Below are positions 11,826 through 43,351 of a stretch of 64,000 nucleotides of DNA, piece by piece (positions within the stretch are counted from its first letter, which is position 1; every line of letters begins with the position of its first letter). The DNA is from an uncultured Caulobacterales bacterium (GTDB taxonomy: Bacteria; Pseudomonadota; Alphaproteobacteria; Caulobacterales; Maricaulaceae): the NCBI GenBank assembly GCA_964352785.1, contig CAYGTI010000017.1, positions 4,494 through 68,493 of the forward strand, given 5' to 3'. Made by a program: the position numbers and the translations under genes. The notes under the pieces were generated by a model. That model did not search any database and had not been told where the DNA came from. It saw nothing but the letters and a program-made list of their open reading frames with translations.

Positions 11826-12260
11826 ATGCAATCCCTTTATTTGGCAGACGAAACCGCGACATTGGCCCTCGGGGCCCGGCTTGCACAGACGTTAAGTGCC
11901 GGTCATGTGGTGGCTTTGAACGGTGATCTTGGCGCAGGGAAAACAACGCTCGCGCGAGGGGTGATAAAAACGCTCTGTGATGTAGATGAAATTCCGTCGC
12001 CAACTTACACGCTTGTGCAGATATATGACGGCCCCGATGCGGAGCTTTGGCATTGTGACATGTACCGTCTTGAGCGCCCCGAGGATGCCTTTGAGCTTGG
12101 TCTCATTGAAGCCTTTGATGAGGCTATTTGTTTAATTGAGTGGCCGGATAAGCTCGGCGATGTATTGCCCGTGGAGGCCTTTCGCGTGAATATAGCCTTT
12201 GAAGGTAAAGGCCGCCGGGCGGACTTAACTGGCTGGGAGGACGGCGCCTTTGACACGTAA
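11826..12260 (+). CDS. tsaE: tRNA t6A37 biosynthesis ATPase TsaE
   Basis: Walker A motif LNGDLGAGKTTLARG and the motifs SPTYTLV, HCDMYRL, IEWP. The start is moved to ATG 11826 (M12 of the track ORF). Confidence 0.85.
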   Translation: MQSLYLADETATLALGARLAQTLSAGHVVALNGDLGAGKTTLARGVIKTLCDVDEIPSPTYTLVQIYDGPDAELWHCDMYRLERPEDAFELGLIEAFDEAICLIEWPDKLGDVLPVEAFRVNIAFEGKGRRADLTGWEDGAFDT

Positions 12261-28142: not shown

Positions 28143-29646
28143 GCAGGCTGACATATCTTTGACGCGCTTGTCTTATGGGTTTGCCAAGCAGCACGGCGTC
28201 ATAGCTGTTATACAGAACGGGGCTGCGCTCCTCATCCGAAGGCAAGACACGACCTTGGCGGCTATGCTAGAGGCCCGCCGGGCGGCCGATATGCCTTTGC
28301 CAATTAAGAATGTTAGTGCGGCTGATTTTGAGGCTCTGCTGGCGAAAACCTACGCCCATGGTGATCTGACCGAAACGGCAGCCACAGCCATGGGCACTCC
28401 CGAAGATTTAAATGCACTGGCTGATAATTTACCGCGCACATCTGATTTGCTCGATAGCGAAGATGATGCGCCCGTCATTCGGTTGATCAACGGTATTCTC
28501 CAAGAAGCTATTCGTACGCGCGCCTCAGATATTCATATTGAGCCTTATGAAAATCGATTGGCCGTGCGCTTTCGTATTGATGGCGCGTTGCGCGATATGC
28601 TCAATCTTTCCTCGAAGTTGTCATCTGTTTTAGTCAGCCGGGTCAAGGTCATGGCGCAACTCGATATTGCCAAAAAACGTGTCCCGCAGGATGGGCGGTT
28701 CTCGCTGAACTTGGGCGAGCGCGCTGTTGACGTGCGGGTCTCTACGCTACCCTCACAATATGGCGAGCGGGTTGTGATGCGGATATTGGAAAAAACGAGC
28801 TCGCTGATGAACCTCTCTGACTTGGGGTTGCCAGCGTCTGAACTTGCGGCACTAGAGGCGGCGCTGCAAAAACCTAACGGAATTTTGCTTGTGTCCGGTC
28901 CTACGGGCGCGGGTAAAACCACAACACTTTATGCGGCGCTGAACAAACTTAATGATGGCTCACGCAATATTTTAACTGTCGAAGACCCGGTCGAATATGC
29001 GCTTGACGGGATTGGCCAGACGCAAGTCAATAACCGCGTAGGGATGAGTTTTGCGGCTGGACTGCGGGCTATCCTGCGCCAAGACCCGGATGTCGTTATG
29101 GTAGGCGAAATTCGCGATCCTGAAACCGCAGAAATTGCGGTTCAGGCCTCTTTGACGGGGCACCTTGTGCTCTCGACGGTTCACACCAACTCAGCCGTCG
29201 CGGCGATTACGCGGTTGCGGGATATGGGAATTGAGCCCTTTTTATTGGCATCCACTGTCACGGCGATTGCGGCGCAAAGGCTTGTTCGACGCCTCTGCGA
29301 GAGCTGTAAAGTGCCGTACACACCGACAGCGCGAGAGCGCCAAGATTTAGGGCTATCGGCCCGAGGCGAGGATATATTTTTTAAAGCGTCCGGTTGCGAG
29401 ACCTGTCATAATATTGGTTATGTTGGCCGTATCGGGCTTTATGAAATTGTGATTATGGATGATCACTTGCGGGCTATGATTCATGACGGCGCGCGCGAGG
29501 TGGACATGGCGTCCTATGCGTTTAAAAATCGCAAAACGCTGCTTGAGAGCGGCGCGGGTCATATTTTATCCGGCATCACCAGCGCTGAGGATGTGCTGCG
29601 GGTGTGCCGCTCCAAAACATCCGAGAGCGGCTTAGGGGATCTCTGA
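28135..29646 (+). CDS. gspE: type II secretion system ATPase GspE
   Basis: 503 aa with Walker A SGPTGAGKTTT, Asp/His boxes (TVEDPVEY, DPDVVMVGEIRD, GHLVLSTVHTN) and the tetracysteine motif CESC...CETC. Confidence 0.95.
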   Translation: MSEQADISLTRLSYGFAKQHGVIAVIQNGAALLIRRQDTTLAAMLEARRAADMPLPIKNVSAADFEALLAKTYAHGDLTETAATAMGTPEDLNALADNLPRTSDLLDSEDDAPVIRLINGILQEAIRTRASDIHIEPYENRLAVRFRIDGALRDMLNLSSKLSSVLVSRVKVMAQLDIAKKRVPQDGRFSLNLGERAVDVRVSTLPSQYGERVVMRILEKTSSLMNLSDLGLPASELAALEAALQKPNGILLVSGPTGAGKTTTLYAALNKLNDGSRNILTVEDPVEYALDGIGQTQVNNRVGMSFAAGLRAILRQDPDVVMVGEIRDPETAEIAVQASLTGHLVLSTVHTNSAVAAITRLRDMGIEPFLLASTVTAIAAQRLVRRLCESCKVPYTPTARERQDLGLSARGEDIFFKASGCETCHNIGYVGRIGLYEIVIMDDHLRAMIHDGAREVDMASYAFKNRKTLLESGAGHILSGITSAEDVLRVCRSKTSESGLGDL

Positions 29647-30851
29647 TGGAGACCTTTGACTATGCAGCCATTGATGCGGCAGGTAAGCGCCTCACCGGGT
29701 CTGTTTCAGCGTCTACGGCCCGAGAGGCTCGCGATATTTTAAGAGCGCAGACGCTGACGCCCATTGACCTTAAAGCGGCCAAAATAAAGACCGTGTCGGG
29801 CTTGTCGTTTGACCGAAAAGTCAGCCACAAAGATGTCACTCAAGCGACGCGGCAAATCGCTATTTTGATTGATGCGGCCACGCCGGTAGAAGAAGCCTTA
29901 AAGGTCACGGCGCTGCAATTTGAGCGCTCGCCCATGCGCCAAGTTCTACTCGATGTGCGGGCGAAAGTTTTAGAAGGCGAGCGGCTGTCAGGCGCTATGC
30001 GGTTTTACCCCAAAACATTCTCTTCGCTTTACACCGGAATGGTAGCCTCCGGCGAAACCTCAGGGCGGCTAGCGGATGTGATGGACCGCCTGGCCAGCGA
30101 CATGGAAGCGGCGCAAAAATTGCGCGGTAAAATCCTTGCAGCAACAGTTTACCCGATTGTTCTAACAATTGTGGCTTTGTCCGTGGTGACTATTTTGATG
30201 GTTTTTGTGGTGCCCAAAGTTGTCGCGCAATTTGACAGTTTTGGGCAGGATTTACCCGCGTTGACCAAAGCGGTTATTGCAATATCAGCTTGGATGAAGG
30301 CGTATGGCGTTTTTGTGTTGATATTACTTTTTGTTGTAGGCTTTGCCGGATTTCAAGCGCTTAAGCGCCCTCACGTGCAAAGGCGTTGGCATAGATTTAT
30401 TCTGCAGCTCCCGCTAATTGGCCGTTTATCTCGAAATCTAAATGCCGCGCGGTTTGCCCGCACTATTGCGGGCCTCATCCAAAGCGGGACGCCCGCTCTG
30501 ACAGCGATGGAGACCGCGCGTCACACGCTACGGAACAGCTTGATGCGAGACGCGGTAGAAAGCGCGTCGCTTAAGATTCGCGAAGGAACGTCTATGAGCG
30601 CGGCTTTACGCGCAACCAAAGTCTTCCCGCCGCTTGTTGTGCAGATGGTGGCGGGCGGCGAGGCGGGCGGCGATGTTGGAAAGATGTTCGCCAAGTCTGC
30701 TGATTACCTTGAAGGTGAATTTGAAAATACAACAAATATATTTTTGAACCTACTGGAACCGCTCATCATTATCGTTTTGGGCGTCATCGTGCTATTAATT
30801 ATAGGCGCAATAATTCTACCGATTTTACGGCTTAATACGTTGGCATTTTAA
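29646..30851 (+). CDS. gspF: type II secretion system inner-membrane platform protein GspF
   Basis: GspF/PilC duplicated cytoplasmic domain with three TM segments. The start is set at ATG 29646 (METFDYAAIDAAGKR), overlapping the gspE TGA by 1 nt. Confidence 0.9.
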   Translation: METFDYAAIDAAGKRLTGSVSASTAREARDILRAQTLTPIDLKAAKIKTVSGLSFDRKVSHKDVTQATRQIAILIDAATPVEEALKVTALQFERSPMRQVLLDVRAKVLEGERLSGAMRFYPKTFSSLYTGMVASGETSGRLADVMDRLASDMEAAQKLRGKILAATVYPIVLTIVALSVVTILMVFVVPKVVAQFDSFGQDLPALTKAVIAISAWMKAYGVFVLILLFVVGFAGFQALKRPHVQRRWHRFILQLPLIGRLSRNLNAARFARTIAGLIQSGTPALTAMETARHTLRNSLMRDAVESASLKIREGTSMSAALRATKVFPPLVVQMVAGGEAGGDVGKMFAKSADYLEGEFENTTNIFLNLLEPLIIIVLGVIVLLIIGAIILPILRLNTLAF

Positions 30852-30856
30852 GTCTT

Positions 30857-31315
30857 ATGGAGATGATTATGAAAAAGTTTAAGAAGAAACACACCCTCCG
30901 CGATCAGGGTTTTACACTCGTTGAGGTCATGGTTGTTATGGTGATTATCGGTTTGCTGGCCACATTCGTTGTGATCAATGTTCTGCCCAGCCAAGACAAA
31001 GCGATGGTGCAAAAGGCCAAGGCGGACATTCGTTTGCTCGAGCAAGCTCTCGAGATGTACCGTTTGGATATGCTGGACTATCCCGACCCTGATGCCGGAT
31101 TGTTGGCCTTAAAGGCATTGCCAGCGGGAAGTGAAAATGTAGACCGTTACCGCGAAGGTGGCTACGTGAAATTTTTGCCGGATGATCCGTGGGGCCGTCC
31201 TTATCTTTACGTCTATCCAGGTGAAAACGGCGTTTTTGATATTATGTCATACGGATCGGACGGGCAGCCTGGCGGTGAAAAACAAGCCGCAGACATTGTA
31301 AGCTGGCAACAATAA
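30857..31315 (+). CDS. gspG: type II secretion system major pseudopilin GspG
   Basis: Prepilin leader and cleavage motif ...RDQG|FTLVEVMVVMVIIGLLA, and the GspG C-terminal signature DPWGRPYLYVYPGENGVFDIMSYGSDGQPGG. Confidence 0.95.
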   Translation: MEMIMKKFKKKHTLRDQGFTLVEVMVVMVIIGLLATFVVINVLPSQDKAMVQKAKADIRLLEQALEMYRLDMLDYPDPDAGLLALKALPAGSENVDRYREGGYVKFLPDDPWGRPYLYVYPGENGVFDIMSYGSDGQPGGEKQAADIVSWQQ

Positions 31316-31785
31316 GACGCGCGGCCCGCATATCACAGGCGGGATTCACGCTCGTCGAAGTTTTAACTGTCTTGGTTATTATCGGGCTGGTGTCCAGCGC
31401 TGTTGTTTTAACATTGCCCGGCGATAAGCCTGCAGAAGAGACCTATGCGAAACAATTAGTACGCGGGTCCAACGCCATGTCTCAATCCAGTTTACTGACA
31501 GGCATGCCTTCGGCGCTTGGCTTATCCGAGGATGGTTACGCGCTCATGGTTTTTGAAAACGGCACTTGGGTTGTGAAGTCAGAGCAAGCTCTACCCGAGG
31601 GTGTCCGTCTGACGTTTGAGAGAGAGGCACTCCCGGTGAAGCTTTCCGAAGACATAATGCCCGCTGCTATTTTTGAACCGTCCGGCCAAGCAACTGTGTT
31701 CTCCTTGGTGCTTTCGGGGCCGCAAAGACGCTATGAGCTTATTAGTCGTGGTGATGGACGTGTTGTTTTGGAGAGAGCTTCGTGA
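31312..31785 (+). CDS. gspH: type II secretion system minor pseudopilin GspH
   Basis: The prepilin motif QAG|FTLVEVLTVLVIIGL is encoded at 31336..31380, upstream of the track's TTG start (31372). The frame opens at 31279 with no ATG/GTG/TTG. ATA 31312 overlaps the gspG stop (ATAA) and gives a textbook leader (M)RRAARISQAG|F. CTG 31303 is the alternative. Confidence 0.7.
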   Translation: MRRAARISQAGFTLVEVLTVLVIIGLVSSAVVLTLPGDKPAEETYAKQLVRGSNAMSQSSLLTGMPSALGLSEDGYALMVFENGTWVVKSEQALPEGVRLTFEREALPVKLSEDIMPAAIFEPSGQATVFSLVLSGPQRRYELISRGDGRVVLERAS

Positions 31786-32156
31786 TGCCGCGTAAGCCTA
31801 AAAACCAAGCAGGGTTTACTCTGATAGAAGTGCTCGCCGCGCTGCTTGTGTTCTCTATTGCTATTATTGGCCTGACCCACGCCGGCACGGAAAGTGCTCG
31901 CGCTGTTGCGGCCATCAATGATAAAACACTCGCTGGTATTGTCGCAGACAATCAGCTGATTATGGCGCGCCGCACGTTTCCGCAAACCGGAGTGACCTCC
32001 GGTGAGGTTGCTGCGATGTCGCGTGAATTTATTTATGATGTTGAGACGACACAGACAGATGCGAGTGATCTCTACCGCTTAACCGTCAAAGTTCGGGCAA
32101 AGAGCCGCGACCAAATAATTGTTGAACGCACAGCCTTTCAGGCGGGAACGCCGTGA
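31782..32156 (+). CDS. gspI: type II secretion system minor pseudopilin GspI
   Basis: 124 aa with the prepilin motif NQAG|FTLIEVLAALLVFSIAIIGL. The gene order supports the call. The start is GTG 31782 or ATG 31785, overlapping the gspH stop. Confidence 0.85.
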   Translation: MMPRKPKNQAGFTLIEVLAALLVFSIAIIGLTHAGTESARAVAAINDKTLAGIVADNQLIMARRTFPQTGVTSGEVAAMSREFIYDVETTQTDASDLYRLTVKVRAKSRDQIIVERTAFQAGTP

Positions 32157-32791
32157 GCGCGCCGCGCCGTGATGCTGGCTTTACACTTGTTGAAGTGCTG
32201 ATCGCGATGTTTATTTTCGCGCTTATCTCCGCTGGGACCATGACTGCGCTGACTTCCACGCTACGGGGCAAGGCGCAAATGAATGAATGGCTAGATGATA
32301 TTAGCCGTATTGATTCCGCGCGCGCGCTCATGCGCTCAGACTTTTCCAACCTTTGGTTGCTGCCTGTTCGGGATGCTTACGGCAGTAACGAACTCTATGT
32401 CATGTCAGGCGGGGTTGATAATTTGATAGAATTCACCCGGGCGGGACGCAGCAACCCAGGAGGACTTGATGCGCGGAGCGAATTTCAACGGGTGAGTTAT
32501 GTCTTTGAAAATGGTGATCTTATCCGGCGCAGTCTTGTGCATGATAATCCTGCGCCTCAAACGCGGGCCATAGATCGTGTCCTGCTCAGCGGCCTTGAGG
32601 CCGTCTCTGTAAGATTTCATTTGCGTGTTGGCGGGACTGATCAACCCTCAAATTCGCGCCAACCTGACCTTGTGCAAGATTATATCTTGGTTGAAGCGGG
32701 GCAAACCCAAACCTTGCCTTACATTGTGAGTGTGGATGCCGCATTTAAAAATGGTGATAGATTGGTTCAACATTTTGAGCTGAGCCTATGA
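32153..32791 (+). CDS. gspJ: type II secretion system minor pseudopilin GspJ
   Basis: 212 aa with the prepilin motif RRDAG|FTLVEVLIAMFIFALISAG. GTGA overlap with gspI. Confidence 0.85.
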   Translation: MSAPRRDAGFTLVEVLIAMFIFALISAGTMTALTSTLRGKAQMNEWLDDISRIDSARALMRSDFSNLWLLPVRDAYGSNELYVMSGGVDNLIEFTRAGRSNPGGLDARSEFQRVSYVFENGDLIRRSLVHDNPAPQTRAIDRVLLSGLEAVSVRFHLRVGGTDQPSNSRQPDLVQDYILVEAGQTQTLPYIVSVDAAFKNGDRLVQHFELSL

Positions 32792-33780
32792 CCCGCTCAA
32801 ACAAAGAAGACGGTGCTGTCCTTCTCACGACCCTGCTCGTCATGGGCCTTATGGCAGCGTTGGCTGTGGCTCTGATCGAAGATGTACGATTTGCAGTTAA
32901 ACGTACGGGACATGTTCAGGCCTACGCGCAAGCCGACTGGTATGCTCAGGGCGCAGAGGCATTCGCGCAGACTTATCTCTCAAATCAGATCAAAAATTTG
33001 GACGGATCACAACTCAACACGATTATTCTGAACGCAGATCCAATAATTTTTCCTTATGAGGGCGGCGCGATGTCGTTAAGTCTTCAGGATGGATCAGGGT
33101 GCTTTGACTTGAGGCAGCTCTCAACCGAGCCTGGGCGTAAAGTCTTTCGGCAGCTTTTAACCGTTCTTGGATGGAACCCGGCGACTGCGGCGCGCCTCAC
33201 GTCAATTGCCATAGATTGGCAAGATGTGGACAGTCAGGTTTTGCCCGACGGAGCGGAAGACTACACCTATCTTGGACGACAGCCCGCTTACCGCACGCCC
33301 AATCGGGAGTTTGCTAGCATCACAGAGCTGCGCGCGCTGGAGACAATGACAGAGGCGAAATATCAAACCTTAAGGCCTTTTGTTTGCGCGCGCGGGGCAA
33401 GCGGCAACAGTACATCTGCCGGCGGCATCAATATTAATACGTTGACGCCTCGCGGCATGCCTTTGTTGGCGGCCGTTCTTGGCGGCGTTGACGGGATGCA
33501 GGTTGCGCAGCAACTGGTCACACAGCGCCCTGCCGGTGGATATGTTGACGAGGCACAGTTTCTCGCAGCGCCGGCCTTGGAGGGATTTACGATAAAACCC
33601 GAGATGGCTGTGGTGACATATGTGCCAGACTATATCCGTATTGAAGCCGACATCGTATATCTTCAAGCGCGGCGGCGAGCAGCCTATGAATTTTCGATTG
33701 AAGGCAGCGCAGCCGTCCGTATATATCGCGGGTTCGGAGACGAGGCTATGCGCCCCAGATTGGATACCCCGCCGACATGA
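32788..33780 (+). CDS. gspK: type II secretion system minor pseudopilin GspK
   Basis: 330 aa with a GspK-like N-terminus (GAVLLTTLLVMGLMAALAVAL.ED) and a helix-hairpin-helix-like C-terminal part. ATGA overlap with gspJ. Confidence 0.85.
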   Translation: MTRSNKEDGAVLLTTLLVMGLMAALAVALIEDVRFAVKRTGHVQAYAQADWYAQGAEAFAQTYLSNQIKNLDGSQLNTIILNADPIIFPYEGGAMSLSLQDGSGCFDLRQLSTEPGRKVFRQLLTVLGWNPATAARLTSIAIDWQDVDSQVLPDGAEDYTYLGRQPAYRTPNREFASITELRALETMTEAKYQTLRPFVCARGASGNSTSAGGININTLTPRGMPLLAAVLGGVDGMQVAQQLVTQRPAGGYVDEAQFLAAPALEGFTIKPEMAVVTYVPDYIRIEADIVYLQARRRAAYEFSIEGSAAVRIYRGFGDEAMRPRLDTPPT

Positions 33781-34835
33781 GTGATGATCTATATATATGG
33801 CTTGCTGAGGATATGTCCGGGCCTTGGTATTGGCGCTGCGGAGACGCAGCGGGCCTAGCGGGTAATGACATGGATAAAACAAAACTTGCTGACTTCGGAG
33901 CCAAGATCGTGAGCGCCGTTGTGCCGGGGCAGTCAGTGCGGATGCTAACGCACGACTTACCTAAGATGAGCGGCGCGGAGCAACGCGCCGCGGCCAGTTT
34001 TGCCATCGAAGATCAAATTGCACTGCCTTTACCTGATCAACACATTGTCCTGGGCCCCAGCCAAGACAAACGGATCGCCTTGATCACCAAGAGTAAAATG
34101 TCTGAAATTTTATCTGCGCTGCGCTCGCAGGGTTTGCGCCCCGGGGGCGTGTACGCTGACTTTGACGTTCTGCAAAGTGATGCGCCTGTGTTGCTGCCGG
34201 ATCGCCTCATTCATCCTGGGCCTTTGGGGTATGCGCTGGACCGGGATTGGGCCAATAGTGAGCAAGACGAAGAGCATCCAAACGCTGTTTTGGCCAGAAT
34301 TAATACTCAAGCAGCAGTGAATTTGATGACGGATGAATTTGCGCCAAAGAGCGCCTTCAGTTTAAAGCCCGCTCAAATGATGCGCGTCGCGGCTTTGTTG
34401 TTGGCTGTAGGCATTGTGTCCTTGGTGCTTGTTGCCGGGCAAAGCCGGGCCGTGTTTAAGCAAGCAGATTATATACGGGCGCAAACCGCCGAAATGTATT
34501 CTGATTATACAGGGCAACCCGCGCCCGCAAATCCAGCCTTGTCAGTTACGCGCGCCGTAAAGAACTCTGGCGGGGAAACCTCTGACTTTCTCGCGCTCTC
34601 GAGCCTTTTGTTCAAAGCTCTTGAAACATCAGACGGAATTACCGTCGATACGCTCCAATTTGACAATGCACAAAACAGATTGACGCTACGGCTTGTCTAT
34701 CCCCGGTTTGAAAGTGCGAGCGGGCTTGAACAATCCGTGCGTGCGGCGGGGGGTGAGTTTCGCTCGGGCGGCGTGCGCGAGCAGGGCGGGCGTCTTATCG
34801 GAGATGCGGTTTTGAGCGTTGGAGGCGGATCATGA
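33777..34835 (+). CDS. gspL: type II secretion system protein GspL
   Basis: 352 aa with a cytoplasmic actin-like domain, a single TM helix (MMRVAALLLAVGIVSLVLVAG) and a periplasmic domain. Position and ATGA coupling support the call. Confidence 0.8.
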   Translation: MSDDLYIWLAEDMSGPWYWRCGDAAGLAGNDMDKTKLADFGAKIVSAVVPGQSVRMLTHDLPKMSGAEQRAAASFAIEDQIALPLPDQHIVLGPSQDKRIALITKSKMSEILSALRSQGLRPGGVYADFDVLQSDAPVLLPDRLIHPGPLGYALDRDWANSEQDEEHPNAVLARINTQAAVNLMTDEFAPKSAFSLKPAQMMRVAALLLAVGIVSLVLVAGQSRAVFKQADYIRAQTAEMYSDYTGQPAPANPALSVTRAVKNSGGETSDFLALSSLLFKALETSDGITVDTLQFDNAQNRLTLRLVYPRFESASGLEQSVRAAGGEFRSGGVREQGGRLIGDAVLSVGGGS

Positions 34836-35287
34836 CCTTTTTAGCGGACAGAACACCGCGCGAGCGGATATTGGTTATGACGGCTCTCGCACTTGTGATT
34901 TTATTCGCGGGTTGGCAGTTTGGAATCAAACCTATCTTCGAGCGCAAAGCCGAGGCCGAGCAGGCGGTTGCAAACGCGCAGCGGGATATGGATATTGTGC
35001 GTTTAGGCCTTCCAAAAATTAGCACGGCTGCCACGTCTAATTTACAAGCATTCAACCGCGACGCCGCGATACAAACAGCCATACGTTTACAGCTTAACAT
35101 AGCGCGTATGCAGCCATCAGGAAATAACGGGCTGCAAATTTGGTTTGAAAATACGCAAAGTTTGACCGTGTACAGATTTATGACTGAGCTTACGGCCTCA
35201 CATAATGTTGCGATTCAGCGTGTGCAAATGACAGGCCGTGAGAACGGCTTTGTGAGCGCGCAAGTGACCTTGGCACCTATTTCATGA
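34832..35287 (+). CDS. gspM: type II secretion system protein GspM
   Basis: 151 aa with an N-terminal TM helix (RILVMTALALVILFAGW) followed by a short periplasmic domain. Gene order supports the call. Confidence 0.8.
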   Translation: MTFLADRTPRERILVMTALALVILFAGWQFGIKPIFERKAEAEQAVANAQRDMDIVRLGLPKISTAATSNLQAFNRDAAIQTAIRLQLNIARMQPSGNNGLQIWFENTQSLTVYRFMTELTASHNVAIQRVQMTGRENGFVSAQVTLAPIS

Positions 35288-35988
35288 AAAAACTTGCCGT
35301 TTTAGCGGTTTTTTGCTCCGCGCTTATGGGGCTTGTTTTGCATTTTCCGTTATCATGGATTGGCGCTTTGGTCCTGCCAAAAAACATATCTCCGAAGCCT
35401 GTTTTGTCCGGCACGGTCTGGCAAGGTAGCGTCAGCGGAATACCGCAAATCGGCGTGATCCATACATACGTCTCGGTGATAAATTTATTTACAGGACAGC
35501 CGCCTTTGTCATTTGAGTCGCGCGCGCCGTACTTGCAATTTTCCGGAACTGCGGGCATCAAAGGGTCCATAGCCGTCTCTTTGCAGGGCGATGTTCTGGG
35601 TATGACGTCTATTGATCGGCGGTTTTCAGGTCTACGGGGAACCTATTCGCTCACGCTCTCAGACATGATTTCTGGTAGTGGCTGCGAGGTGGCGTCCGGT
35701 ACATTCACAAGTGATATTTTGCAGCGTAACCGCGACGTGTGGAGGTGGCTGGGACCAGCCTTATCTGGGCCTGTAAGCTGTGAAGCAGGGGATGTGGTTC
35801 TTAATGTTAGCGGGCGTGATAATATGAATGATATTCAGGCAATTATTCGTATTGGGCCGTCTGGAACCTACCGGGCTGAGATTGATGTCACCACACAAGA
35901 CCCAAATATTGATACGGTATTGCCAATTTTTGGATTTCAAAAAAATGGCCCATCCTACAGATTATTGGAGGCGGGACGGTGGTATTAA
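35284..35988 (+). CDS. gspN: type II secretion system protein GspN
   Basis: 234 aa with an N-terminal anchor MKKLAVLAVFCSALMGLVL. It is the last canonical position of the operon. Confidence 0.7.
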   Translation: MKKLAVLAVFCSALMGLVLHFPLSWIGALVLPKNISPKPVLSGTVWQGSVSGIPQIGVIHTYVSVINLFTGQPPLSFESRAPYLQFSGTAGIKGSIAVSLQGDVLGMTSIDRRFSGLRGTYSLTLSDMISGSGCEVASGTFTSDILQRNRDVWRWLGPALSGPVSCEAGDVVLNVSGRDNMNDIQAIIRIGPSGTYRAEIDVTTQDPNIDTVLPIFGFQKNGPSYRLLEAGRWY

Positions 35989-36449
35989 GATGGCTATACA
36001 GCGCGCTATCTTGCGCTATATTTGCTGCGGGGTGTACGACCTTGCCAAGTATCCCTGCGTCTGTTGTCGCAGGGCCAGAGAGTGCTCTTACCCGTCTTTC
36101 GCCGATCACGTTGGGCGCGGGTGAATGCGGGCTTTTCGTTTGGACGGCCAGCGCGCAAAAGCGGTTTGTTTTGTTCAGTCAATCGCAAGAGGGAACGGGC
36201 GTATGGGTCAGTGAAAGCGGCGAGGAAAACCTAACGATAGATCAACAAGAGGGCACGTCCGCCCATAGTCAACGGCCAAAAATAGAGTTTAGAACGCCGC
36301 GTCAAGAACGGCTGGAACTGGACTTACGTCAAAGCCAAGCCATTACTGACGGGATGCGTTATAAGTCGGGAACGTTGACATTGACGTCTTTGGAGGGGTG
36401 GGAAAAGGTAACGCCCGTCGTCGGTTTATCGGCCTGTCAGGCCTTATAA
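35979..36449 (+). CDS. hypothetical lipoprotein, translationally overlapping gspN
   Basis: 156 aa with a GTG start 10 nt inside gspN and the lipobox IFAAGC. I recognise no family. Confidence 0.5.
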   Translation: MVLRWLYSALSCAIFAAGCTTLPSIPASVVAGPESALTRLSPITLGAGECGLFVWTASAQKRFVLFSQSQEGTGVWVSESGEENLTIDQQEGTSAHSQRPKIEFRTPRQERLELDLRQSQAITDGMRYKSGTLTLTSLEGWEKVTPVVGLSACQAL

Positions 36450-36537
36450 TGTATTTCACGTTTAGTCGTACTTAGATCGCAATGGGGAAATGAGTGAGAA
36501 AAGCCCAATTTCCTATTCACGAGAATTGCGCTAATGT

Positions 36538-37041
36538 TTATGAGATTAAAGCCGCCGTCCAAACCATGAAAATACCCAGCGCAAGACATGGCCCAAAGGG
36601 AATGCGTCCTTCGTCGGCGAGTTTGCGAAACGACGGAAACATAAGCGCAGCCAGTCCCATACCGCTCGCAATTAAAACAATGAACGGCAGTCCGTACCAG
36701 CCGCACCATGCTCCGCCCGCAGCCAGCAGTTTGGCGTCGCCTCGTCCAAGGCCGTCAACGCCACGTAGCTTCTTGAATGCGATTTCAATCAGCACAAAAA
36801 CGCCGTAACCAATAGCTGCGCCTAGGAGACTGGCTTTTATGTTGCCGGTGAGCACCCATGATTGCAAAATACCCATAAGAATAAGTGGCAGTGTCAGATT
36901 GTTTGGCAGACGAAAGGTCTTTAAATCAATCCATGACAAGACCGCCAAGATTCCGAAAAGCACCGCTGTAAAAATATAGATCAAATCGATTATGTCCGGG
37001 GCTTGCGGCGTGGAAAAGACCAACCAAACAAAAGCGCGCAT
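36538..37041 (-). CDS. A24-family prepilin peptidase, short form without the N-terminal methyltransferase/zinc-finger domain
   Basis: This is the C-terminal 167 aa of track ORF 36538..37428. The first catalytic Asp context is LSWIDLKTFRLPN and the second is GLGRGDAKLLAAGGAW, across about 5 TM helices. The start is set at MRAFVWLVF (comp 37039..37041), because the upstream 129 codons are R/C/H-rich and overlap the TRIC gene. Confidence 0.7.
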   Translation of the reverse strand: MRAFVWLVFSTPQAPDIIDLIYIFTAVLFGILAVLSWIDLKTFRLPNNLTLPLILMGILQSWVLTGNIKASLLGAAIGYGVFVLIEIAFKKLRGVDGLGRGDAKLLAAGGAWCGWYGLPFIVLIASGMGLAALMFPSFRKLADEGRIPFGPCLALGIFMVWTAALIS

Positions 37042-37604
37042 CCACGGACAATAAAGGCACATGTTCCGCCAAGTGCCAACGCCGTGATTTCCGGCGTTCC
37101 GTAGCGCGCGGCAAGGCAATAGACGAGCCCGCCGATGAGCGCGGCGGTGGCGTAAATCTCTTTTTGCAAAATGAGCGGAATTTCGTTGCAAACAATATCC
37201 CGGATCATCCCCCCAGCAGCAGCCGTGACAATGCCCATGGCCACGCTGATCGTTATATTTTGTGTGAGTGCGTAAGTTTTTGAGGCACCCAAAACGCAAA
37301 AAAGAGCCATACCTACAGCATCTGCCCATTCCAGTACGGTGAGCCGTCTGCCGATGCGCGGCGGAAATGTAAATATAAGAATTGCGGCGCAAATGGCGAG
37401 CCAAATATAGACAGGAGCGCCGAGCCAAAAAACGGGCACATCGAGGATAAGGTCGCGCAAAGTGCCGCCGCCGATGGCTGGAAACATGGCTAGAACGATG
37501 TGCCCAAAAATATCCATATCATTGCGGTTAGCGGCCAGTGCGCCTGTCAACGCGAAGACGAAAACGCCTAAAAAGTCTAAATATGTAATGATTGAAAGAC
37601 CCAT
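36990..37604 (-). CDS. trimeric intracellular cation channel family protein (UPF0126/YadS-like)
   Basis: 204 aa with two UPF0126 repeats (FVFALTGALAA...GGGTLRD and MGIVTAAAGGMIRD) and seven hydrophobic helices. Confidence 0.75.
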   Translation of the reverse strand: MGLSIITYLDFLGVFVFALTGALAANRNDMDIFGHIVLAMFPAIGGGTLRDLILDVPVFWLGAPVYIWLAICAAILIFTFPPRIGRRLTVLEWADAVGMALFCVLGASKTYALTQNITISVAMGIVTAAAGGMIRDIVCNEIPLILQKEIYATAALIGGLVYCLAARYGTPEITALALGGTCAFIVRGCALLFGWSFPRRKPRT

Positions 37605-37609
37605 CTTAT

Positions 37610-38626
37610 TTAGAAGCGATAGCTGATTCGGTCAGCGGCCCGGCAAAATAGATCAAGTTCGTTCAGGCAAACGCGTTCCATATTCGTTACCAATTGTGGC
37701 AAACTGATATCCTGCCCGTCTTTTGTTTGAGACGCTTCTTCGATGTCCCGGACATATTGCTCGTACCGGGTTTGAGATTGTTCTTCGAGCAAGGCATTAT
37801 CCATAATGGCCTCAGTCGACCCAAGAATGAAAAGCGTGACAGCCGTAAAGTCGATCCAGGCTGTATCAAGACCTGTCCAAACCGGTTCTGCGATTTTTAC
37901 CCCTAAAGAGATAAAGGCGAACACTGCTGCGCCCAAATAAATCATATCCTGTGTTGAGTTGAAAATGCGCCGCCGTCCTGAAAAGGCCACAACTTCGCCA
38001 AGGGCAAAATTGCGTTGATAAGCTACCCTGAGTTCCATGTAGGCCTCGCGCGCCATTGTCGCGATCCCGGCATGAGCGGCTTTCTTAGGCAGCTTCATAG
38101 GCTCCATAACGGTGCCGGGTGAGAAGTTTTTTAAAACAGCAATTCCAGCATTCATTTCATTTTCTAATCTGGCGAGGTGTTTTTGCACGAAAGTTTGAGT
38201 CAGTGTCTCAAGGTGATCTGTATTTTTTGCAGACTGCGCTAGTTGAAACGCTTGAAATTTTAAACTCCGCAGACGCTCAGCGGCAAAACGGTTTAATATC
38301 CATTTTTGTTTTTGCTTGGTCCCAATCAAATACCACTGGAGCACAATCCCAATTCCGGCCATGGTCACAGCGGCGAACTTTAGAATGACATTATTGAGAA
38401 TACCTTTGAGTATCAAAGCCTCGGCGATAGTAAAAATAGCGCTCGCGGCCACCAAGAGGATCGCGATCTGACCTAGATAATGATACCGTTTTTTTGCTGC
38501 ATTTGCCTGCCGCTCATGACCTATGAAGACATCGTCAAGTATCGCTAAATGGATAAGCGGGGTGATGAGTTTGTAGTGTGACTGCGTGGTGTCAGTGGCA
38601 AACAAGTCACGGTTTGGCGTTTGCAT
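37610..38626 (-). CDS. four-TM protein with two SLATT-like (2TM) modules
   Basis: 338 aa. Module 1 has helix AKKRYHYLGQ, TM ~50-72, TM ~79-101, then KWILNRFAAERLRSLKFQAF. Module 2 has REAYMELRVAYQRNF, TM ~228-245, TM ~255-275, then RYEQYVRDIE. The AGAGG SD precedes the ATG. SLATT is assigned by pattern memory only. Confidence 0.5.
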   Translation of the reverse strand: MQTPNRDLFATDTTQSHYKLITPLIHLAILDDVFIGHERQANAAKKRYHYLGQIAILLVAASAIFTIAEALILKGILNNVILKFAAVTMAGIGIVLQWYLIGTKQKQKWILNRFAAERLRSLKFQAFQLAQSAKNTDHLETLTQTFVQKHLARLENEMNAGIAVLKNFSPGTVMEPMKLPKKAAHAGIATMAREAYMELRVAYQRNFALGEVVAFSGRRRIFNSTQDMIYLGAAVFAFISLGVKIAEPVWTGLDTAWIDFTAVTLFILGSTEAIMDNALLEEQSQTRYEQYVRDIEEASQTKDGQDISLPQLVTNMERVCLNELDLFCRAADRISYRF

Positions 38627-38751: not shown

Positions 38752-41139
38752 ATGCCTTGTTTGTCTAAGAACTTTCTTATTTTAGCTGTGTTTACAATCG
38801 CTTTGATGGAGACATCTGGCGCTCAAACAAACTCAGACTTTATCCCACCGCCTGAAAAACCTTTGGTGGAGGGCAAGGACATAAAGTCAAAGGATTATTT
38901 CCCGATAGACCAAAGACTAGTTGACAAAAGGGCGGAGGATACAAGGCGTTATTGTGAGCCTATAATAGCCGCTGGTCAAAGATGTACGCCGCCAGTCTCG
39001 TCTTTTCGATCTGTACCTGTTCCGCGTTACGCCGCACCTTTTCAGGTTCAGCTTGTGACAACGGCAAAGCTTGTCACGGATAAATATTTGACAGACACCT
39101 ATAAAGACCGCCCCATGTGGGAGCTGCGCCATGCCTGCGGCGGTGCTTTGATTGACCGCGAATGGGTCCTGACCGCCGCGCATTGTTTTATTGATAACGC
39201 AAAGCCGGAGCATTACGGGGTTAGGCTTGATGTAGATAATATCTCACAGTCGGCATCTGATACGTTCGAGATAAAAGATATAATCACGCCGGAAAATTTC
39301 AACCGCACAGATATAGAAAATGATATTGCTCTGGTCCGCATTGAGGCGGCGGATGCAAAGCTTATTATCCAAGACTATTCCCCCATTAGAAATGGAGCTA
39401 AGCGTGAAAACGCAGTTGTGAAAAGTTACGTCTTTAGGAATGGGCGCACGCTTGTCACGGTAGGGGCGGACCGCCAACTCAAGGCGTGGGATACAGAGAG
39501 CGGAAAGCTGCTTGCTCAAAGAGAAACTTTGAACGCCGAGATGGGCGAAGGTTTAATTGAAAGAAATGGGTCTTTATTTGGAGCTGATCAGCAGGGCATA
39601 TGGAGTTTTGATCTGGCTTCCGGTCGCGCGGGCGCAAAGCTGCAAACGGATAAGGCGTATGGCTGGGCGTTATCAGAGGATGGAAAATGGCTAATGACTT
39701 ACGCAGAGGGCCACGCTGCGCAGCTTTGGGACGTTAAAACGGGCACGAAGGCTGCAGCCCTCGATCATGGCAACGTTGTAGATATTATTGATTTTGTTGC
39801 TCGCGGCCGGGCCGTAACAGCCTCATATGAAGGTGATCTAAAATTATGGGATATTAATCGCCAAACCGTACTGGCATCTGTTTCAAACGTGAGAGGCGAC
39901 CCAGCTTATATGAGCTTTGATAAAGGGCGTAAGCTTTTAGTGACAACAGATAGTTCAATGACAATTATTCAGATGCGCGATGGCAAGATTTTAAAAACGC
40001 TCGATGCAGAAGGTTTAAATGATGCACGCCTTCCGCCAATGATTGTAGCTGACGAACAAGCACTCGTGACATGGCAATTTAATGAACCCGTTAAAATATG
40101 GGATTTAAAGCAAGGGGATCTGCGCCGCCACATTTCTGTTGGCCAAAATATTTCATCTTTAATTTTTGACCACAAAAGCGATCGGTTATTGGGGTGGGAT
40201 ATGTCTGGGCATATCGAAGTCTGGGATGTCAAAACAGGAAAAATCCTCTCCAAAAAATATCTCGAAGAGGCGAACTTCAATTTAAGCGTCTCGTTTTTTG
40301 ATCAGGGCCGCAAATTTATGACGAGCCTTGCGAGCGGTGTGACTCAAGTGTGGGAGGCTGAGAAGAGCGACAATCTCTATACCATTGATCATAGCCTTCC
40401 TATAGCCGGAGCGCGTCTATCGGAAAATGAGCGGTATATATTGAGCTGGAGTGAGCATGGAACGGCTGAGATATGGGACGCCAAAACCGGGCGGGCGATA
40501 AAACGTTTGTTTCACGGGGCCTCGGTTGAAGGCTTGTCTTTGTTTAATAAAGACCGCTCGCTACTCACATGGGGACGGGCAGGCAAAGCCAGGATATGGG
40601 ACATTAAATCAGGCCGAGAAACTGCCCGTGTGGTGCACCCCAGGCCTGATACCGATAGCATTCAAGACCGCTCATCACACCGCGATGCCAAGCCCTCACT
40701 CGTGAGCGTTGTCGACCTTGCGCGCGGCGAAGCTGACTTGTTGGCGGATGACGTACTTTTTACTTATGGCTGGGGTAAAACGCGACCTGTCGCTGGGTTT
40801 GAACCGTCATCGACATTGAGAATGGTTGGGCTGCAACGTTTGACCAATGCCGCATGCCTTGAAACGTCTGGCTGGGGCGACGATGTTTTAGACAGCAGTG
40901 TTTTTTGTGCCCATGATGCGCGCCGTAAAACCTGTTACGGGGATAGCGGCGGGCCCGTAATAGGCAATGATAGGGTCGTTGGCGTTGTCAGTTGGGGCTC
41001 CGGTACGTGCGGCGAAGACGGAAAACCAGGGGTGTACACCCGCGTGTCAGAGCATTTGGCTTGGATATATCGAGCGGTTTGCCCGAAATATCCAGATGCG
41101 AATAATCGTCCCGCATTTTGTCCCAGCCTTAACCCTTAG
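38752..41139 (+). CDS. secreted trypsin-fold (S1) serine protease with an internal ~10-repeat WD40-like insertion
   Basis: 795 aa. It has a signal peptide ending SGA|Q, His motif WVLTAAHC (H144) and Asp motif NDIALVRI (D191). Ten ~41-aa WD-like units lie between residues ~215 and 630. These are followed by FTYGWGKT, CYGDSGGPV (S732) and VVSWGSGTCG..KPGVYTRV. AGGGAG SD. Confidence 0.8.
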   Translation: MPCLSKNFLILAVFTIALMETSGAQTNSDFIPPPEKPLVEGKDIKSKDYFPIDQRLVDKRAEDTRRYCEPIIAAGQRCTPPVSSFRSVPVPRYAAPFQVQLVTTAKLVTDKYLTDTYKDRPMWELRHACGGALIDREWVLTAAHCFIDNAKPEHYGVRLDVDNISQSASDTFEIKDIITPENFNRTDIENDIALVRIEAADAKLIIQDYSPIRNGAKRENAVVKSYVFRNGRTLVTVGADRQLKAWDTESGKLLAQRETLNAEMGEGLIERNGSLFGADQQGIWSFDLASGRAGAKLQTDKAYGWALSEDGKWLMTYAEGHAAQLWDVKTGTKAAALDHGNVVDIIDFVARGRAVTASYEGDLKLWDINRQTVLASVSNVRGDPAYMSFDKGRKLLVTTDSSMTIIQMRDGKILKTLDAEGLNDARLPPMIVADEQALVTWQFNEPVKIWDLKQGDLRRHISVGQNISSLIFDHKSDRLLGWDMSGHIEVWDVKTGKILSKKYLEEANFNLSVSFFDQGRKFMTSLASGVTQVWEAEKSDNLYTIDHSLPIAGARLSENERYILSWSEHGTAEIWDAKTGRAIKRLFHGASVEGLSLFNKDRSLLTWGRAGKARIWDIKSGRETARVVHPRPDTDSIQDRSSHRDAKPSLVSVVDLARGEADLLADDVLFTYGWGKTRPVAGFEPSSTLRMVGLQRLTNAACLETSGWGDDVLDSSVFCAHDARRKTCYGDSGGPVIGNDRVVGVVSWGSGTCGEDGKPGVYTRVSEHLAWIYRAVCPKYPDANNRPAFCPSLNP

Positions 41140-41184: not shown

Positions 41185-41382
41185 TCACTGATTTTCGATA
41201 GGCCCGGTAAGTCCGCCGCCCGTTGGGCATTTGGGGTATCCCGGAGTTTTAGGCGTACAGGCTTGCTTCGTGGATTCGCTTGATGGCTTGTCCACTGCCT
41301 CGTCTGTCGTCTTTGTGTTGGTGTGCGCGCAACCTGACATTATTAAAAACAATGTCGTGCCTATAATACCGTATAATTTCAT
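41185..41382 (-). CDS. small lipoprotein (65 aa), downstream of the TIR gene
   Basis: Lipobox LIMSGC. The mature peptide of about 48 aa is Thr/Pro/Lys-rich with two further Cys (QACTPKTPGYPKCPTGGG). It starts 25 nt after the TIR-TPR stop on the same strand. Confidence 0.45.
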   Translation of the reverse strand: MKLYGIIGTTLFLIMSGCAHTNTKTTDEAVDKPSSESTKQACTPKTPGYPKCPTGGGLTGPIENQ

Positions 41383-41407: not shown

Positions 41408-43351
41408 CTAATCCGAAAACCCGAGCGCGGCAAGCATATCTGAAAACTCTGTCTTTGACCTCAGCGGATCAAGTGCCGGGTCGACCTTTGCAAGGATAAG
41501 GCCCGAGTCGTTTAATTTAATCGCTTTTTCCATCATTTTAACCGCCAAATCGACCTCTCCCCATTGAGACAAGATTTGAACTTGTTGATAAGCCCCCGCG
41601 TCGCCAAAAGTATCTATGAGTTGTTTTTGCGCCGCTTTTGCCTGATCAGTTCTCCCCAACTTGTTGAAGGCAATCGCGAGGCAGGGTAGGCGTTCCATCT
41701 GATTTTTTTCATCTTCGCAGACGTTAGTTGCTTCTTCAAAGCGGCCGAGCGCAATCAGTGCATTGCCGATCTGAGATTTAGCATTTGTATGTTTTGGAGA
41801 TAAATTCAACGCGTGCTGCGTGGCCTTGATTGACGCCTCATAGCGGCGTGAAAAGTATAAAATCGTCCCATCAGTTCTATGGATTGTTGGATTTAAAGGG
41901 TCGAGTGTTTTGGCGCGGTTAATTGAACTGATGGCTTCAGTTTGTTGTCCGGTAACCGCTTTGTAAGTCGCGTAGCGGGCCAAGATTGTTGCGCTTCCAA
42001 ATCCAAGTTCCCTAGATTTTTCATAAGGGACTTTAGCGCCCTTAATATCAAGCTGGGCGAATTTGACATAGGCGAGTGAGGATTGTGCTATGGCTGAATT
42101 CGGGCTTTGCCTAACGGCCAAATTCGCCGAGTTCAGAGCTGCTGCAAAGTACGAACTTACCGTCTCTTGGTCGGAACTGGTTGCGCCAAGCCAAAGAAGT
42201 AGTCTGGCTTTTGCGGCGTGTGCTCGGCTAAAACTGGGATCAAGGTTTACGGCTCTGTCAAGATGTTCGAGGGCTACGAGATTGGAGGTGCGGCTGATGT
42301 TTGATCTAAAAAGGTCAGTGCCTTTGAGGTATTCGGTAAAGGCTGCGGGGTTTTCAGTTTCTGCAGTTTCTGCCGCGATATTTGTTTGGCTCACTTTTTG
42401 AGTCAACACGCCTGTAATTGCTTCGGCAATTAGATTGTGGATTTTCAGGGTCTCGTTTTCTGTATGCTGAAACGTTTTGCCCCAAACGTTAAAACCTGTT
42501 TTGCCATTTATAAGCTCTGCTGTGACGCGCATATCTGCGCCTTCGCGGCTTACATTCCCATCCAAAATATGAGCGACGCCCAAGCGTTTTGCGATATCTT
42601 TTGCCGTTAATGATTGACTGGCCAGAGCTTCTGAAGAGGAGCGCGAGACGACTTGAAGCGCTTGATTGCGTGCAAGGCTTATGCGCAGTTCTGATGATAG
42701 CCCGGCTGAAAGGTAATCTTGCGCGCTATCACCGCTGGCGTTACGAAAAGGGAGTACGGCGACGCCGTTCTCAAGAAGATTTGCGCCCTTTGCAAAAAGC
42801 CCGCTCGTGATGGAGAGGCCGCCGCCAATAGCTACCACAGCGCTCGCGCCCGCCATCATCACATGTCTACGCGAGAGTACCGCTTTGGGTTTTGAGTGCA
42901 CGGCCCGTCGTTTTGGGACGTTTCCTCCGTGCATAACTGCCAGCATGCGTACTAACTCTTGGATGCTGGACGAGGTGTCATCGCCGTCCCATTTTTGGAT
43001 GTCGATAAGTTGAACTTGCCGAAATCCCAAAGGCGCGATTGTTCCGTCCAATGTTAGAGGAATGAGCCTCTCGCGTACCCGTCCGCTCGTGGCTTCATCA
43101 CGCACCCAATGAGACGATATGGAGGTCTTTGACCATAGCACGACAACGGCTTTGGCAGACTCGAGGGCCTCTTCGGTTGTTTCTAAAAAACTGGTGCCGC
43201 CTTCAAGCATGCCGTCCCACCACACGCGGTATCCGGCTGCTTCAATGGCGTCAATAATAGGAAGAGCTTGTGCTTGGTCGACTCGCGAATAGCTGAAAAA
43301 GACGGTCGTAAGTTCCGCGTCTTTATCGTCGTGTTCGTCTGATTGCGCCAT
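41408..43351 (-). CDS. TIR domain - TM - periplasmic TolB-N-like/TPR repeat protein
   Basis: 647 aa. The N-terminal TIR domain reads TVFFSYSRVDQ...YRVWWD...AKAVVVLWSKTSISSHWVRDEA, with the conserved Glu at residue 86. A TM helix spans ~164-187 (VMMAGASAVVAIGGGLSITSGLFA). Next comes VAVLPFRNASGDSAQDYLSAGLSSEL.., a motif seen in periplasmic modules of TPR-linked receptors. TPR-like helical repeats then run to the C-terminus. Confidence 0.8.
   Translation of the reverse strand: MAQSDEHDDKDAELTTVFFSYSRVDQAQALPIIDAIEAAGYRVWWDGMLEGGTSFLETTEEALESAKAVVVLWSKTSISSHWVRDEATSGRVRERLIPLTLDGTIAPLGFRQVQLIDIQKWDGDDTSSSIQELVRMLAVMHGGNVPKRRAVHSKPKAVLSRRHVMMAGASAVVAIGGGLSITSGLFAKGANLLENGVAVLPFRNASGDSAQDYLSAGLSSELRISLARNQALQVVSRSSSEALASQSLTAKDIAKRLGVAHILDGNVSREGADMRVTAELINGKTGFNVWGKTFQHTENETLKIHNLIAEAITGVLTQKVSQTNIAAETAETENPAAFTEYLKGTDLFRSNISRTSNLVALEHLDRAVNLDPSFSRAHAAKARLLLWLGATSSDQETVSSYFAAALNSANLAVRQSPNSAIAQSSLAYVKFAQLDIKGAKVPYEKSRELGFGSATILARYATYKAVTGQQTEAISSINRAKTLDPLNPTIHRTDGTILYFSRRYEASIKATQHALNLSPKHTNAKSQIGNALIALGRFEEATNVCEDEKNQMERLPCLAIAFNKLGRTDQAKAAQKQLIDTFGDAGAYQQVQILSQWGEVDLAVKMMEKAIKLNDSGLILAKVDPALDPLRSKTEFSDMLAALGFSD

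Follow-up and report, generated by a model that had tools for sequence, protein, structure and literature searches.

A secreted S1 serine protease with a nested WD40-type propeller and its conserved TIR-protein neighbourhood

The stretch analysed here, 64,000 nucleotides of contig CAYGTI010000017.1 from an uncultured Caulobacterales bacterium (hereafter the window, in whose own positions all coordinates are given), carries on its plus strand an uninterrupted reading frame of 795 codons for a serine protease of the S1, or trypsin, fold. Judged by its sequence, the product of this gene is a true chymotrypsin-fold serine protease, secreted (periplasmic) and with its catalytic triad complete, within whose catalytic domain lies a WD40-type propeller of ten blades; we regard this nested-propeller S1 architecture as nearly certain. 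Genes for a membrane-anchored TIR protein and a small lipoprotein lie beside it. The parts of the protease are as follows (pLDDT, predicted local distance difference test):

38752..41139, plus strand: secreted S1 (trypsin-fold) serine protease of 795 amino acids (aa) with nested 10-blade WD40 propeller (open reading frame; Pfam Trypsin and WD40 families)
38752..38823, plus strand: plausible signal peptide, residues 1-24, MPCLSKNFLILAVFTIALMETSGA/Q (hydrophobic segment 1-19, then SGA/Q)
38824..39039, plus strand: N-terminal extension, residues 25-96, with a Cys68/Cys78 pair, low-confidence or disordered (AlphaFold2 pLDDT <50 for residues 1-60 and 73-96)
39040..39387, plus strand: S1 barrel 1, residues 97-212, with His144 at 39181-39183 and Asp191 at 39322-39324 (aligns to trypsin 23-94)
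39415..40647, plus strand: WD40-type beta-propeller array, residues 222-632, ten blades of 33-47 aa (Pfam propeller families, AlphaFold2 strands)
40648..40692, plus strand: flexible return linker, residues 633-647 (pLDDT <50)
40693..41088, plus strand: S1 barrel 2 and C-terminal helix, residues 648-779, with Ser732 at 40945-40947 and Lys726 at 40927-40929 (Pfam Trypsin, trypsin 117-220)

A trypsin-fold protease interrupted by a propeller

The catalytic domain is recognised in two pieces. Pfam Trypsin (PF00089) matches the protease with E=3.5e-40 and 138.6 bits (cut-off 20.6) in two separate stretches, the second spanning residues 648-772 and profile positions 101-220, and bovine trypsin likewise aligns in two pieces, protease residues 127-201 corresponding to trypsin 23-94 and residues 670-776 to trypsin 117-220 (trypsin structures match at E about 1e-25). 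Once residues 213-644 are removed in silico, what is left can be aligned to trypsin 23-220 without a break (E=3e-27). These alignments support the original prediction, made from this DNA alone, that a single S1 domain is split by a propeller insertion. Membership of the S1 family follows from a profile score above the curated threshold and from His, Asp and Ser in order in TAAHC, DIAL and GDSGGP contexts. The motifs and residue numbers listed in that prediction were reproduced: HACGG..TAAHC at residues 127-145 (H144), ENDIALVRI at 189-197 (D191), FTYGWGKT at 670-677, CYGDSGGPV at 728-736 (S732) and VVSWGSG..VYTRV at 745-765, with ten W-D/E units starting at residues 243, 282, 323, 363, 404, 447, 488, 531, 572 and 613. 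Barrel 2 retains the oxyanion sequence GDSGGP and Gly at both 216 and 226. Lysine at the position of trypsin Asp189, previously proposed by eye, was recovered as K726 in the trypsin alignment, and H144, D191, S732 and K726 are all invariant in a 19-sequence family alignment. An NCBIfam scan of the protease matched no family, and promoter and terminator scans gave counts no higher than in shuffled sequence.

Several features of the mature protein are consistent with life outside the cytoplasm. Its ten cysteines allow for five pairs, of which three coincide with canonical S1 disulfides, and the propeller contains no pair; together with the hydrophobic N-terminal signal, this pairing fits an extracytoplasmic (periplasmic or secreted) location. 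The intact triad and cysteine pattern suggest that the enzyme remains active despite the insertion. The N-terminal extension terminates in a family motif, VPRxAAPFQVQ, in which P96, F97 and Q100 are invariant in the 19-sequence alignment. No IVGG-type (Ile16) activation N-terminus occurs in the protease, and VPRxAAPFQ lies only 4 residues ahead of the c28-equivalent Pro. Zymogen activation of the Ile16 type is typical of the animal trypsin subfamily and is not required for S1 membership.

The insert itself has the hallmarks of a WD40-type propeller, that is, four-stranded blades of ~40 residues, WD-like dipeptides and profile similarity. More than 20 WD40-type propeller families in Pfam match residues ~220-630 (E=1e-25 to 1e-15), all under their family-specific cut-offs, as is usual for a non-orthologue, and the designed WD40 protein Tako8 matches with E=6e-25. 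AlphaFold2, given the 19-sequence alignment as input, modelled the full-length protease with pLDDT 74 and a predicted template-modelling score (pTM) of 0.70, and placed exactly 40 beta-strands between residues 222 and 628, or 10 blades of 4 strands; a model of the excised S1 construct from single-sequence input reached pLDDT 31, too low for use. A Foldseek search of the full-length model against the PDB returned WD40 proteins as all of its top 50 matches, among which the S1 halves were not represented, and the best structural matches were 8-blade rings with template-modelling scores of only 0.47-0.55. Tandem Repeats Finder detected no DNA-level tandem repeats under the blades in the protease reading frame, and the blades are accordingly old and diverged. 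Across the family the insert varies from 264 to 525 aa (~6 to ~12 blades), and pairwise identity averages 23-29% in the propeller but 40-56% in the S1 halves, so that the propeller is about half as conserved and evolves about twice as fast; blades 8-10 are its best conserved part in the 19-sequence alignment.

Unsplit orthologues and the trypsin alignment place the insertion between trypsin ~c113 and c117, at the start of the inter-barrel linker. The insert lies ~10 residues past the strand that follows Asp102 (IALVRI) and ahead of the strand equivalent to trypsin V118-L123. This placement comes from the nested protease of locus L012, the unsplit orthologues and trypsin only, as hmmalign to a hidden Markov model (HMM) of the excised domain misplaced the insert in several nested sequences. 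We take c113-117 to be the exposed Arg117 autolysis loop near Cys122, on the face opposite the substrate cleft. Vertebrate proteases tether N-terminal accessory chains on that face, examples being the A chain of thrombin and clotting-protease light chains. The earlier claim of a propeller at or near the inter-barrel linker and beside the cleft therefore holds for the linker, whereas a position beside the active-site cleft appears doubtful.

The gene is neither a singleton nor a product of assembly. Identical 795-aa proteins are encoded on contigs from four independently assembled sequencing runs (L001-L004). Eighteen full-length relatives came out of a word-indexed search, at 25-44% identity by BLASTP and 23-46% in the MAFFT alignment. 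Each has a Trypsin match, and every one except P0014 and P0018 has precomputed WD40-type matches as well; none is named. When 1.8 billion cluster representatives were searched exhaustively by profile, ~55 clusters (50% identity; 600-900 aa) matched the whole nested profile in one stretch, with the triad invariant. The search proposed for other proteins of the same nested architecture thus returned both full-length relatives and cluster representatives. A chimeric assembly or a fused call that joins a WD40 gene to two protease fragments, for which the unusual layout is the one argument, would have to recur in four separate runs and in 19 to ~55 diverged relatives that share the order of parts and an invariant triad, and the reading frame in the window is continuous. 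We give it practically no chance and rule out an assembly artefact, the concern raised when the architecture was first proposed.

Nested proteases represent a marine-alphaproteobacterial elaboration within a protease family that is widespread in Proteobacteria. The majority of its members are plain, unsplit S1 proteases of ~270 aa, found in Sphingomonadales, Steroidobacteraceae and Lysobacterales (isolates include Sphingomonas cremea, Pseudoxanthomonas gei and Luteimonas vadosa). These align to the excised-S1 HMM as one unbroken match over positions ~5 to 262, which indicates that the propeller is an insertion into an existing family. Nested versions are carried by Hyphomonas and Caulobacterales genomes and, among the loci examined, are confined to marine Caulobacterales/Hyphomonadaceae-like lineages (L014-L017 and metagenomic loci).

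The conserved gene neighbourhood

The genes flanking the protease in the window are listed below.

37610..38626, minus strand: SLATT-like (DUF4231-like) membrane protein, 338 aa, divergent from the protease gene (sub-threshold profile matches)
41185..41382, minus strand: small lipoprotein, 65 aa, with lipobox ..LIMSGC, acidic/polar linker and C-terminal C-x9-C-P-TGGGLTGPIENQ motif (open reading frame)
41408..43351, minus strand: membrane-anchored TIR protein, 647 aa, with N-terminal TIR, transmembrane helix 164-182, TolB-like domain and TPR (Pfam TIR_2, TPR families)
within 25450-37428: complete type II secretion cluster, gspC and gspD secretin through gspE-N

The protease lies tail-to-tail with a two-gene operon for the TIR protein, with its transmembrane helix and TPR, and for a small secreted peptide or lipoprotein. 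Scanning 185,579 species genomes with the family alignment yielded 79 loci; in these and the metagenome loci, partner HMMs identified a TIR-TPR orthologue (E<1e-100) directly downstream of and convergent with the protease in ~58 loci. This neighbour is present in 50/56 loci whose protease has the family-specific N-terminal region, compared with 2/23 generic trypsin loci. Four of the six family-type loci without it lie at contig ends, and the two generic-trypsin loci that have it are from Erythrobacteraceae, with proteases bearing N-terminal Sel1 repeats. The adjacency of TIR-TPR and small-peptide genes spans two proteobacterial classes, and the same partner genes accompany relatives whose other flanks are unrelated. 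Both partners are better conserved across loci than the protease (52-76% identity for the 338-aa protein, 42-57% for TIR-TPR). Protease and TIR-TPR are the only gene families common to the loci: a search for further conserved neighbours found, beyond these two and the SLATT-like gene (8 loci), only recurrent "families" that proved to be spurious antisense open reading frames in high-GC genomes. Together, these patterns make it very probable that the module is a functional unit. PADLOC, applied to the protease, SLATT-like and TIR-TPR proteins, returned only weak generic TIR matches and a spurious LmuA match; the module is not a catalogued defence system.

The TIR protein is predicted to cross the membrane once. 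It matches Pfam TIR_2 (E=7e-22) and TPR families, the TPR matches recurring in NCBIfam, and over 58 orthologues it conserves both the motif W82-x3-E86 (WVRDE86) and an RR pair that precedes the single transmembrane helix. In W82-x3-E86, a WxxxE motif, E86 falls at the position of the catalytic Glu in TIR NADases. The conserved RR before a single helix predicts a cytoplasmic TIR domain and a periplasmic TolB-like/TPR part, giving a predicted ectodomain of ~460 aa. The family comprises at least 896 clusters, annotated only generically. Residues ~190-390, between the helix and the TPR (AVLPF.N.SGD..Q.Y.S.GL..E.R..LARN), are the most conserved segment of the ectodomain; they are "TolB-like" by JGI annotation and match TIGR04510 (E=2e-10), a putative peptide-modification-system cyclase family in which this module is coupled to another kind of cytoplasmic output domain.

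The divergently encoded 338-aa protein is more narrowly distributed. Its orthologues give weak but consistent matches (DUF4231 in 7/7, SLATT_3 in 5/7), NCBIfam SLATT_1/3 match at E about 1e-4 to 1e-3, and its family comprises 79 clusters, several of which carry a DUF4231 or SLATT label from their sources. Relatives of the partner proteins that bear a name belong to Henriciella, Algimonas, Litorimonas and Marinicaulis. Among the loci examined, the SLATT-like gene occurs only with the propeller-bearing branch; propeller and SLATT-like gene are lineage-specific gains, and the protein is a candidate downstream membrane effector.

Some loci depart from the basic layout. L012 (5395-10046) has two nested-propeller protease paralogues (871 and ~681-700 aa) in tandem, upstream of one lipoprotein/TIR-TPR operon and with the SLATT-like gene on their far side. 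Tandem protease duplicates also occur in the unsplit loci L044, L046, L049, L064, L066 and L075. TIR-associated proteases of Erythrobacter and Qipengyuania (L070, 5675-7978; L081, 5348-9950) are 767-823 aa long with Gln at position 189, and their ~500-aa N-terminal region with Sel1 repeats is a terminal-fusion alternative to the nested propeller. At the Hyphomonas-type loci L015 and L017 (5100-6657, minus strand), an extra divergent 518-aa Asp189 trypsin-like gene lies directly upstream of the nested protease.

Small peptides, the propeller and a possible signalling route

A small open reading frame fills the slot downstream of the TIR gene in most of the ~58 loci, and none was found in some. 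In the window this is the 65-aa lipoprotein gene, which follows the TIR gene immediately on the same strand and has orthologues in 8 nested-type loci; its product is a candidate substrate or pro-ligand of the protease. In most nested-type loci (exceptions L013, L015 and L017) the motif C-x(5-9)-C-x-[TQE]GGG-x-x-GPI, present once or twice, closes the peptide. The slot holds, in gammaproteobacteria and many alphaproteobacteria, a lipoprotein with an Ala/Pro/Glu-rich linker and a C-terminus of the form ..DAEQSGGDKV.., ..EHTGGIKVGQ or ..QGGGE... Sphingomonadaceae usually have a leaderless acidic peptide of 40-85 aa that ends in 3-6 identical Arg-terminated hexapeptides, of types (GSGDDR)n, (GNPDNR)n, (TSGDGR)n and (GIGDTR)n, with the stop codon right after the last Arg; by its repeats, this peptide looks like a polyprotein precursor of a hexapeptide. 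Hexapeptide-repeat peptides lie on the minus strand in the gap between the protease and TIR stop codons at L045, L052, L057, L060, L063, L068, L072, L073, L074, L080, L084 and L087, and several of the Sphingomonadaceae peptides share the N-terminus M-[VI]-x-GG-K-P-V-T-D.

Peptide type covaries with the residue at protease position 189. All Asp189 proteases (16/16) adjoin Arg-terminated repeat peptides, compared with 0/~30 of those with another residue there (K/S/A/T/Q), and Lys189 or Ser189 enzymes adjoin acidic lipoproteins that end in a GG(D/G)K-like or TGGGxxGPI motif. Proteases with Asp189 are trypsin-like and cleave after Arg or Lys (the P1 residue). This covariation suggests that the neighbouring peptide is the substrate of the protease. 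Such a pairing of enzyme and substrate predicts the release of identical hexapeptides, a prediction that is directly testable.

One possibility is that protease, peptide and TIR-TPR protein form a signalling route across the membrane. The periplasmic protease would cleave the neighbouring small peptide or lipoprotein, its S1-pocket residue matching the peptide type; the periplasmic TPR ectodomain would read the processed peptide, or its loss, and thereby switch the cytoplasmic TIR domain to produce an NADase or cyclic-ADPR-type signal. Where present, the SLATT-like protein could serve as a membrane effector, as in type VII Thoeris, while the propeller could provide a docking or exosite platform for the Cys-hairpin lipoprotein, the TPR ectodomain or an external cue. 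As a whole, a module in which the nested S1 protease, the peptide and the TIR-TPR protein act together in signalling is the best explanation available to us, and we rate its chances as about even. The specific order from protease to peptide to TPR to TIR is more tentative, falling somewhat short of even chances.

Several observations weigh against this interpretation. Peptide cleavage, TPR binding, TIR activity and the effector role of the SLATT-like protein are all deduced from gene context. Few independent lineages contribute to the covariation, as the Asp189 cases with a family or genus label are all Sphingomonadales and one, L050, is labelled only Pseudomonadota. The Sphingomonadaceae repeat peptides have no recognisable signal peptide, which leaves their meeting with a periplasmic protease unexplained there. 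The engineered trypsin D189K of Graf and colleagues (1987) reportedly gained no acidic P1 specificity, and Lys189 by itself is thus no predictor of the cleavage site. All SLATT assignments fall under curated thresholds, most loci of the wider family have no SLATT-like gene, and the loci are not obviously inside defence islands.

What the propeller contributes bears on the choice among alternatives. The original prediction was that it could gate or template substrate access; in this lid model, analogous to prolyl oligopeptidase, it would cap the cleft so that only small peptides or a specific threaded substrate reach Ser732. The likely substrate is indeed a small peptide or lipoprotein tail, peptidases of family S9 carry a propeller nested in the catalytic domain as a filter, and the pTM value suggests a defined mutual arrangement of domains. 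However, we place the insertion point on the side of the fold that faces away from the cleft, no lid is needed by unsplit orthologues in the same module and neighbourhood, another branch uses N-terminal Sel1 repeats instead, and the range from ~6 to ~12 blades is hard to square with a precise lid. Gating is therefore disfavoured, and we consider a lid quite unlikely. Since the propeller is dispensable in most of the family, is swapped for N-terminal Sel1 repeats elsewhere and is the fastest-evolving element, it is most likely a docking or exosite platform and possibly a cue sensor; the unsplit orthologues and the Sel1 branch favour recruitment or docking over an obligatory lid.

Two further alternatives concern the module rather than the fold. 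The protease could cut the TIR protein itself, within its periplasmic TolB-like/TPR ectodomain, by regulated proteolysis like that of DegS and RseA, with the lipoprotein as inhibitor, bait or anchor until an envelope or phage cue arrives and with the propeller as cue sensor. Conservation of the three genes fits this equally well, and rapid propeller evolution is as expected of a sensor for variable ligands; WD40 and TPR arrays are moreover frequent sensors in bacterial conflict systems (PMC7159879). Receptor clipping nonetheless leaves the pairing of Asp189 with Arg-repeat peptides unexplained, and most family members are without any sensor domain, so that we think it unlikely. Alternatively, the protease may be a degradative or nutritional enzyme exported by the adjacent type II secretion system, its propeller binding substrate or surface and its TIR neighbourhood coincidental. 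A signal peptide is present, and the complete gspC-N cluster and a prepilin peptidase lie directly upstream both in the window and in its closest relative, L007. Yet only the window, its identical copies (L001-L004) and L007 show this adjacency, the other loci having unrelated flanks, while the TIR-TPR neighbour persists in nearly all family-type loci and the S1 pocket covaries with the adjoining peptide. Type II secretion is thus rejected as the main explanation, and the coincidence it requires seems very improbable.

The preferred signalling module also admits a bolder version, a bacterial "Toll-like" pathway in which a dedicated periplasmic protease would mature the linked peptide ligand of a single-pass TIR receptor, with the propeller and a SLATT pore effector added in the marine branch, and in which the protease would be the first S1 enzyme with a domain nested between its barrels. 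We consider it doubtful in this full form. If true, it would amount to a new class of extracytoplasmic input to TIR signalling, for immunity, kin recognition or quorum sensing, and the ligand of some lineages would be a polyprotein of identical hexapeptides.

Relation to known systems and other genes

The protease and its module consist of known parts in an undescribed arrangement. Like bacterial secreted members of the S1 family, the protease has the triad motifs, the GDSGGP oxyanion loop, the three canonical disulfides and Gly216/Gly226; it differs in its 410-aa nested propeller, Lys189, the lack of an Ile16-type N-terminus and the TIR-receptor neighbourhood. S9 peptidases (prolyl oligopeptidase, DPP-IV, oligopeptidase B) also have a propeller that interrupts a serine-peptidase catalytic domain, and likely share small-peptide substrates, but theirs is an alpha/beta hydrolase fold with a 7-8 blade non-WD propeller and the whole triad C-terminal to it, whereas here the propeller separates His and Asp from Ser in a two-barrel fold, on a linker that probably faces away from the cleft. 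An identity as an S9-type propeller-gated peptidase was rejected, as Pfam and the trypsin alignment assign the catalytic domain to S1. Subtilases of family S8 with a PA domain (plant SBT3, streptococcal C5a peptidase) similarly nest an accessory domain between catalytic residues, where it serves substrate selection or dimerisation; both fold and inserted domain differ, and there is no TIR link. Few folds have been studied as closely as the chymotrypsin fold, in which accessory domains as a rule sit at the termini. Full-text searches of the literature found no description of the nested S1-propeller fold or of the module, in agreement with the original prediction, which gave terminal fusions of S1 proteases but no nested propeller as known, and neither PADLOC nor NCBIfam has a model for the module. 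A conserved propeller of ~400 residues indicates that the inter-barrel linker tolerates large insertions, a point of use to protease engineering and to the study of how proteins accrete domains.

Among TIR systems, the closest parallel is type VII Thoeris, which combines a TIR protein (ThsB) with a SLATT effector (ThsH) in cyclic ADP-ribose (cADPR) signalling (preprint 10.64898/2025.12.03.692087). Both encode a TIR with a catalytic-type Glu, its neighbour being a SLATT-clan membrane protein in Thoeris and the candidate SLATT-like protein here, and the TIR protein of the window has the TIR_2 match and the conserved Glu expected of Thoeris. It differs in that the TIR is membrane-anchored with a large TolB-like/TPR ectodomain and is accompanied by a predicted periplasmic protease and small peptide; with its transmembrane helix and predicted periplasmic ectodomain, it was rejected as a soluble ThsB-type partner of a two-gene Thoeris system for phage defence. 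The Rap/Phr and other RRNPP systems share the logic of a small exported pro-peptide processed by a protease, a TPR receptor and an intracellular output, but their receptors are cytoplasmic and found in Firmicutes, unlike the TIR-TPR protein here. The Drosophila protease cascade that leads through Spaetzle to Toll shares, more loosely, a serine protease and a TIR output, although the Toll ectodomain is LRR rather than TPR. Both likenesses would be functional, with no homology beyond the TIR, TPR and S1 domains.

To our knowledge, bacterial TIR systems described so far sense cytoplasmic events. Nearly all of the ~60 receptor loci examined carry a cognate protease and small peptide, and there is a meaningful chance that through this module TIR signalling receives extracytoplasmic input of a new class. 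The TIR-TPR family would then open the study of extracytoplasmic signals that reach TIR enzymes, and the module would offer a concrete evolutionary parallel to protease-to-Toll signalling.

Elsewhere in the window, the arrangement at 25450-37428 is syntenic with locus L007 and absent from the other protease loci; after the gsp cluster come a protein of 156 aa whose N-terminus is lipobox-like (35979-36449), then a prepilin peptidase (A24) and, on the minus strand, a gene of the glycine-transporter family. Further upstream, at 12250-20496, three large consecutive plus-strand open reading frames (600, 990 and 1164 aa) lie where the G+C content is raised, to as much as 0.56 compared with ~0.50.

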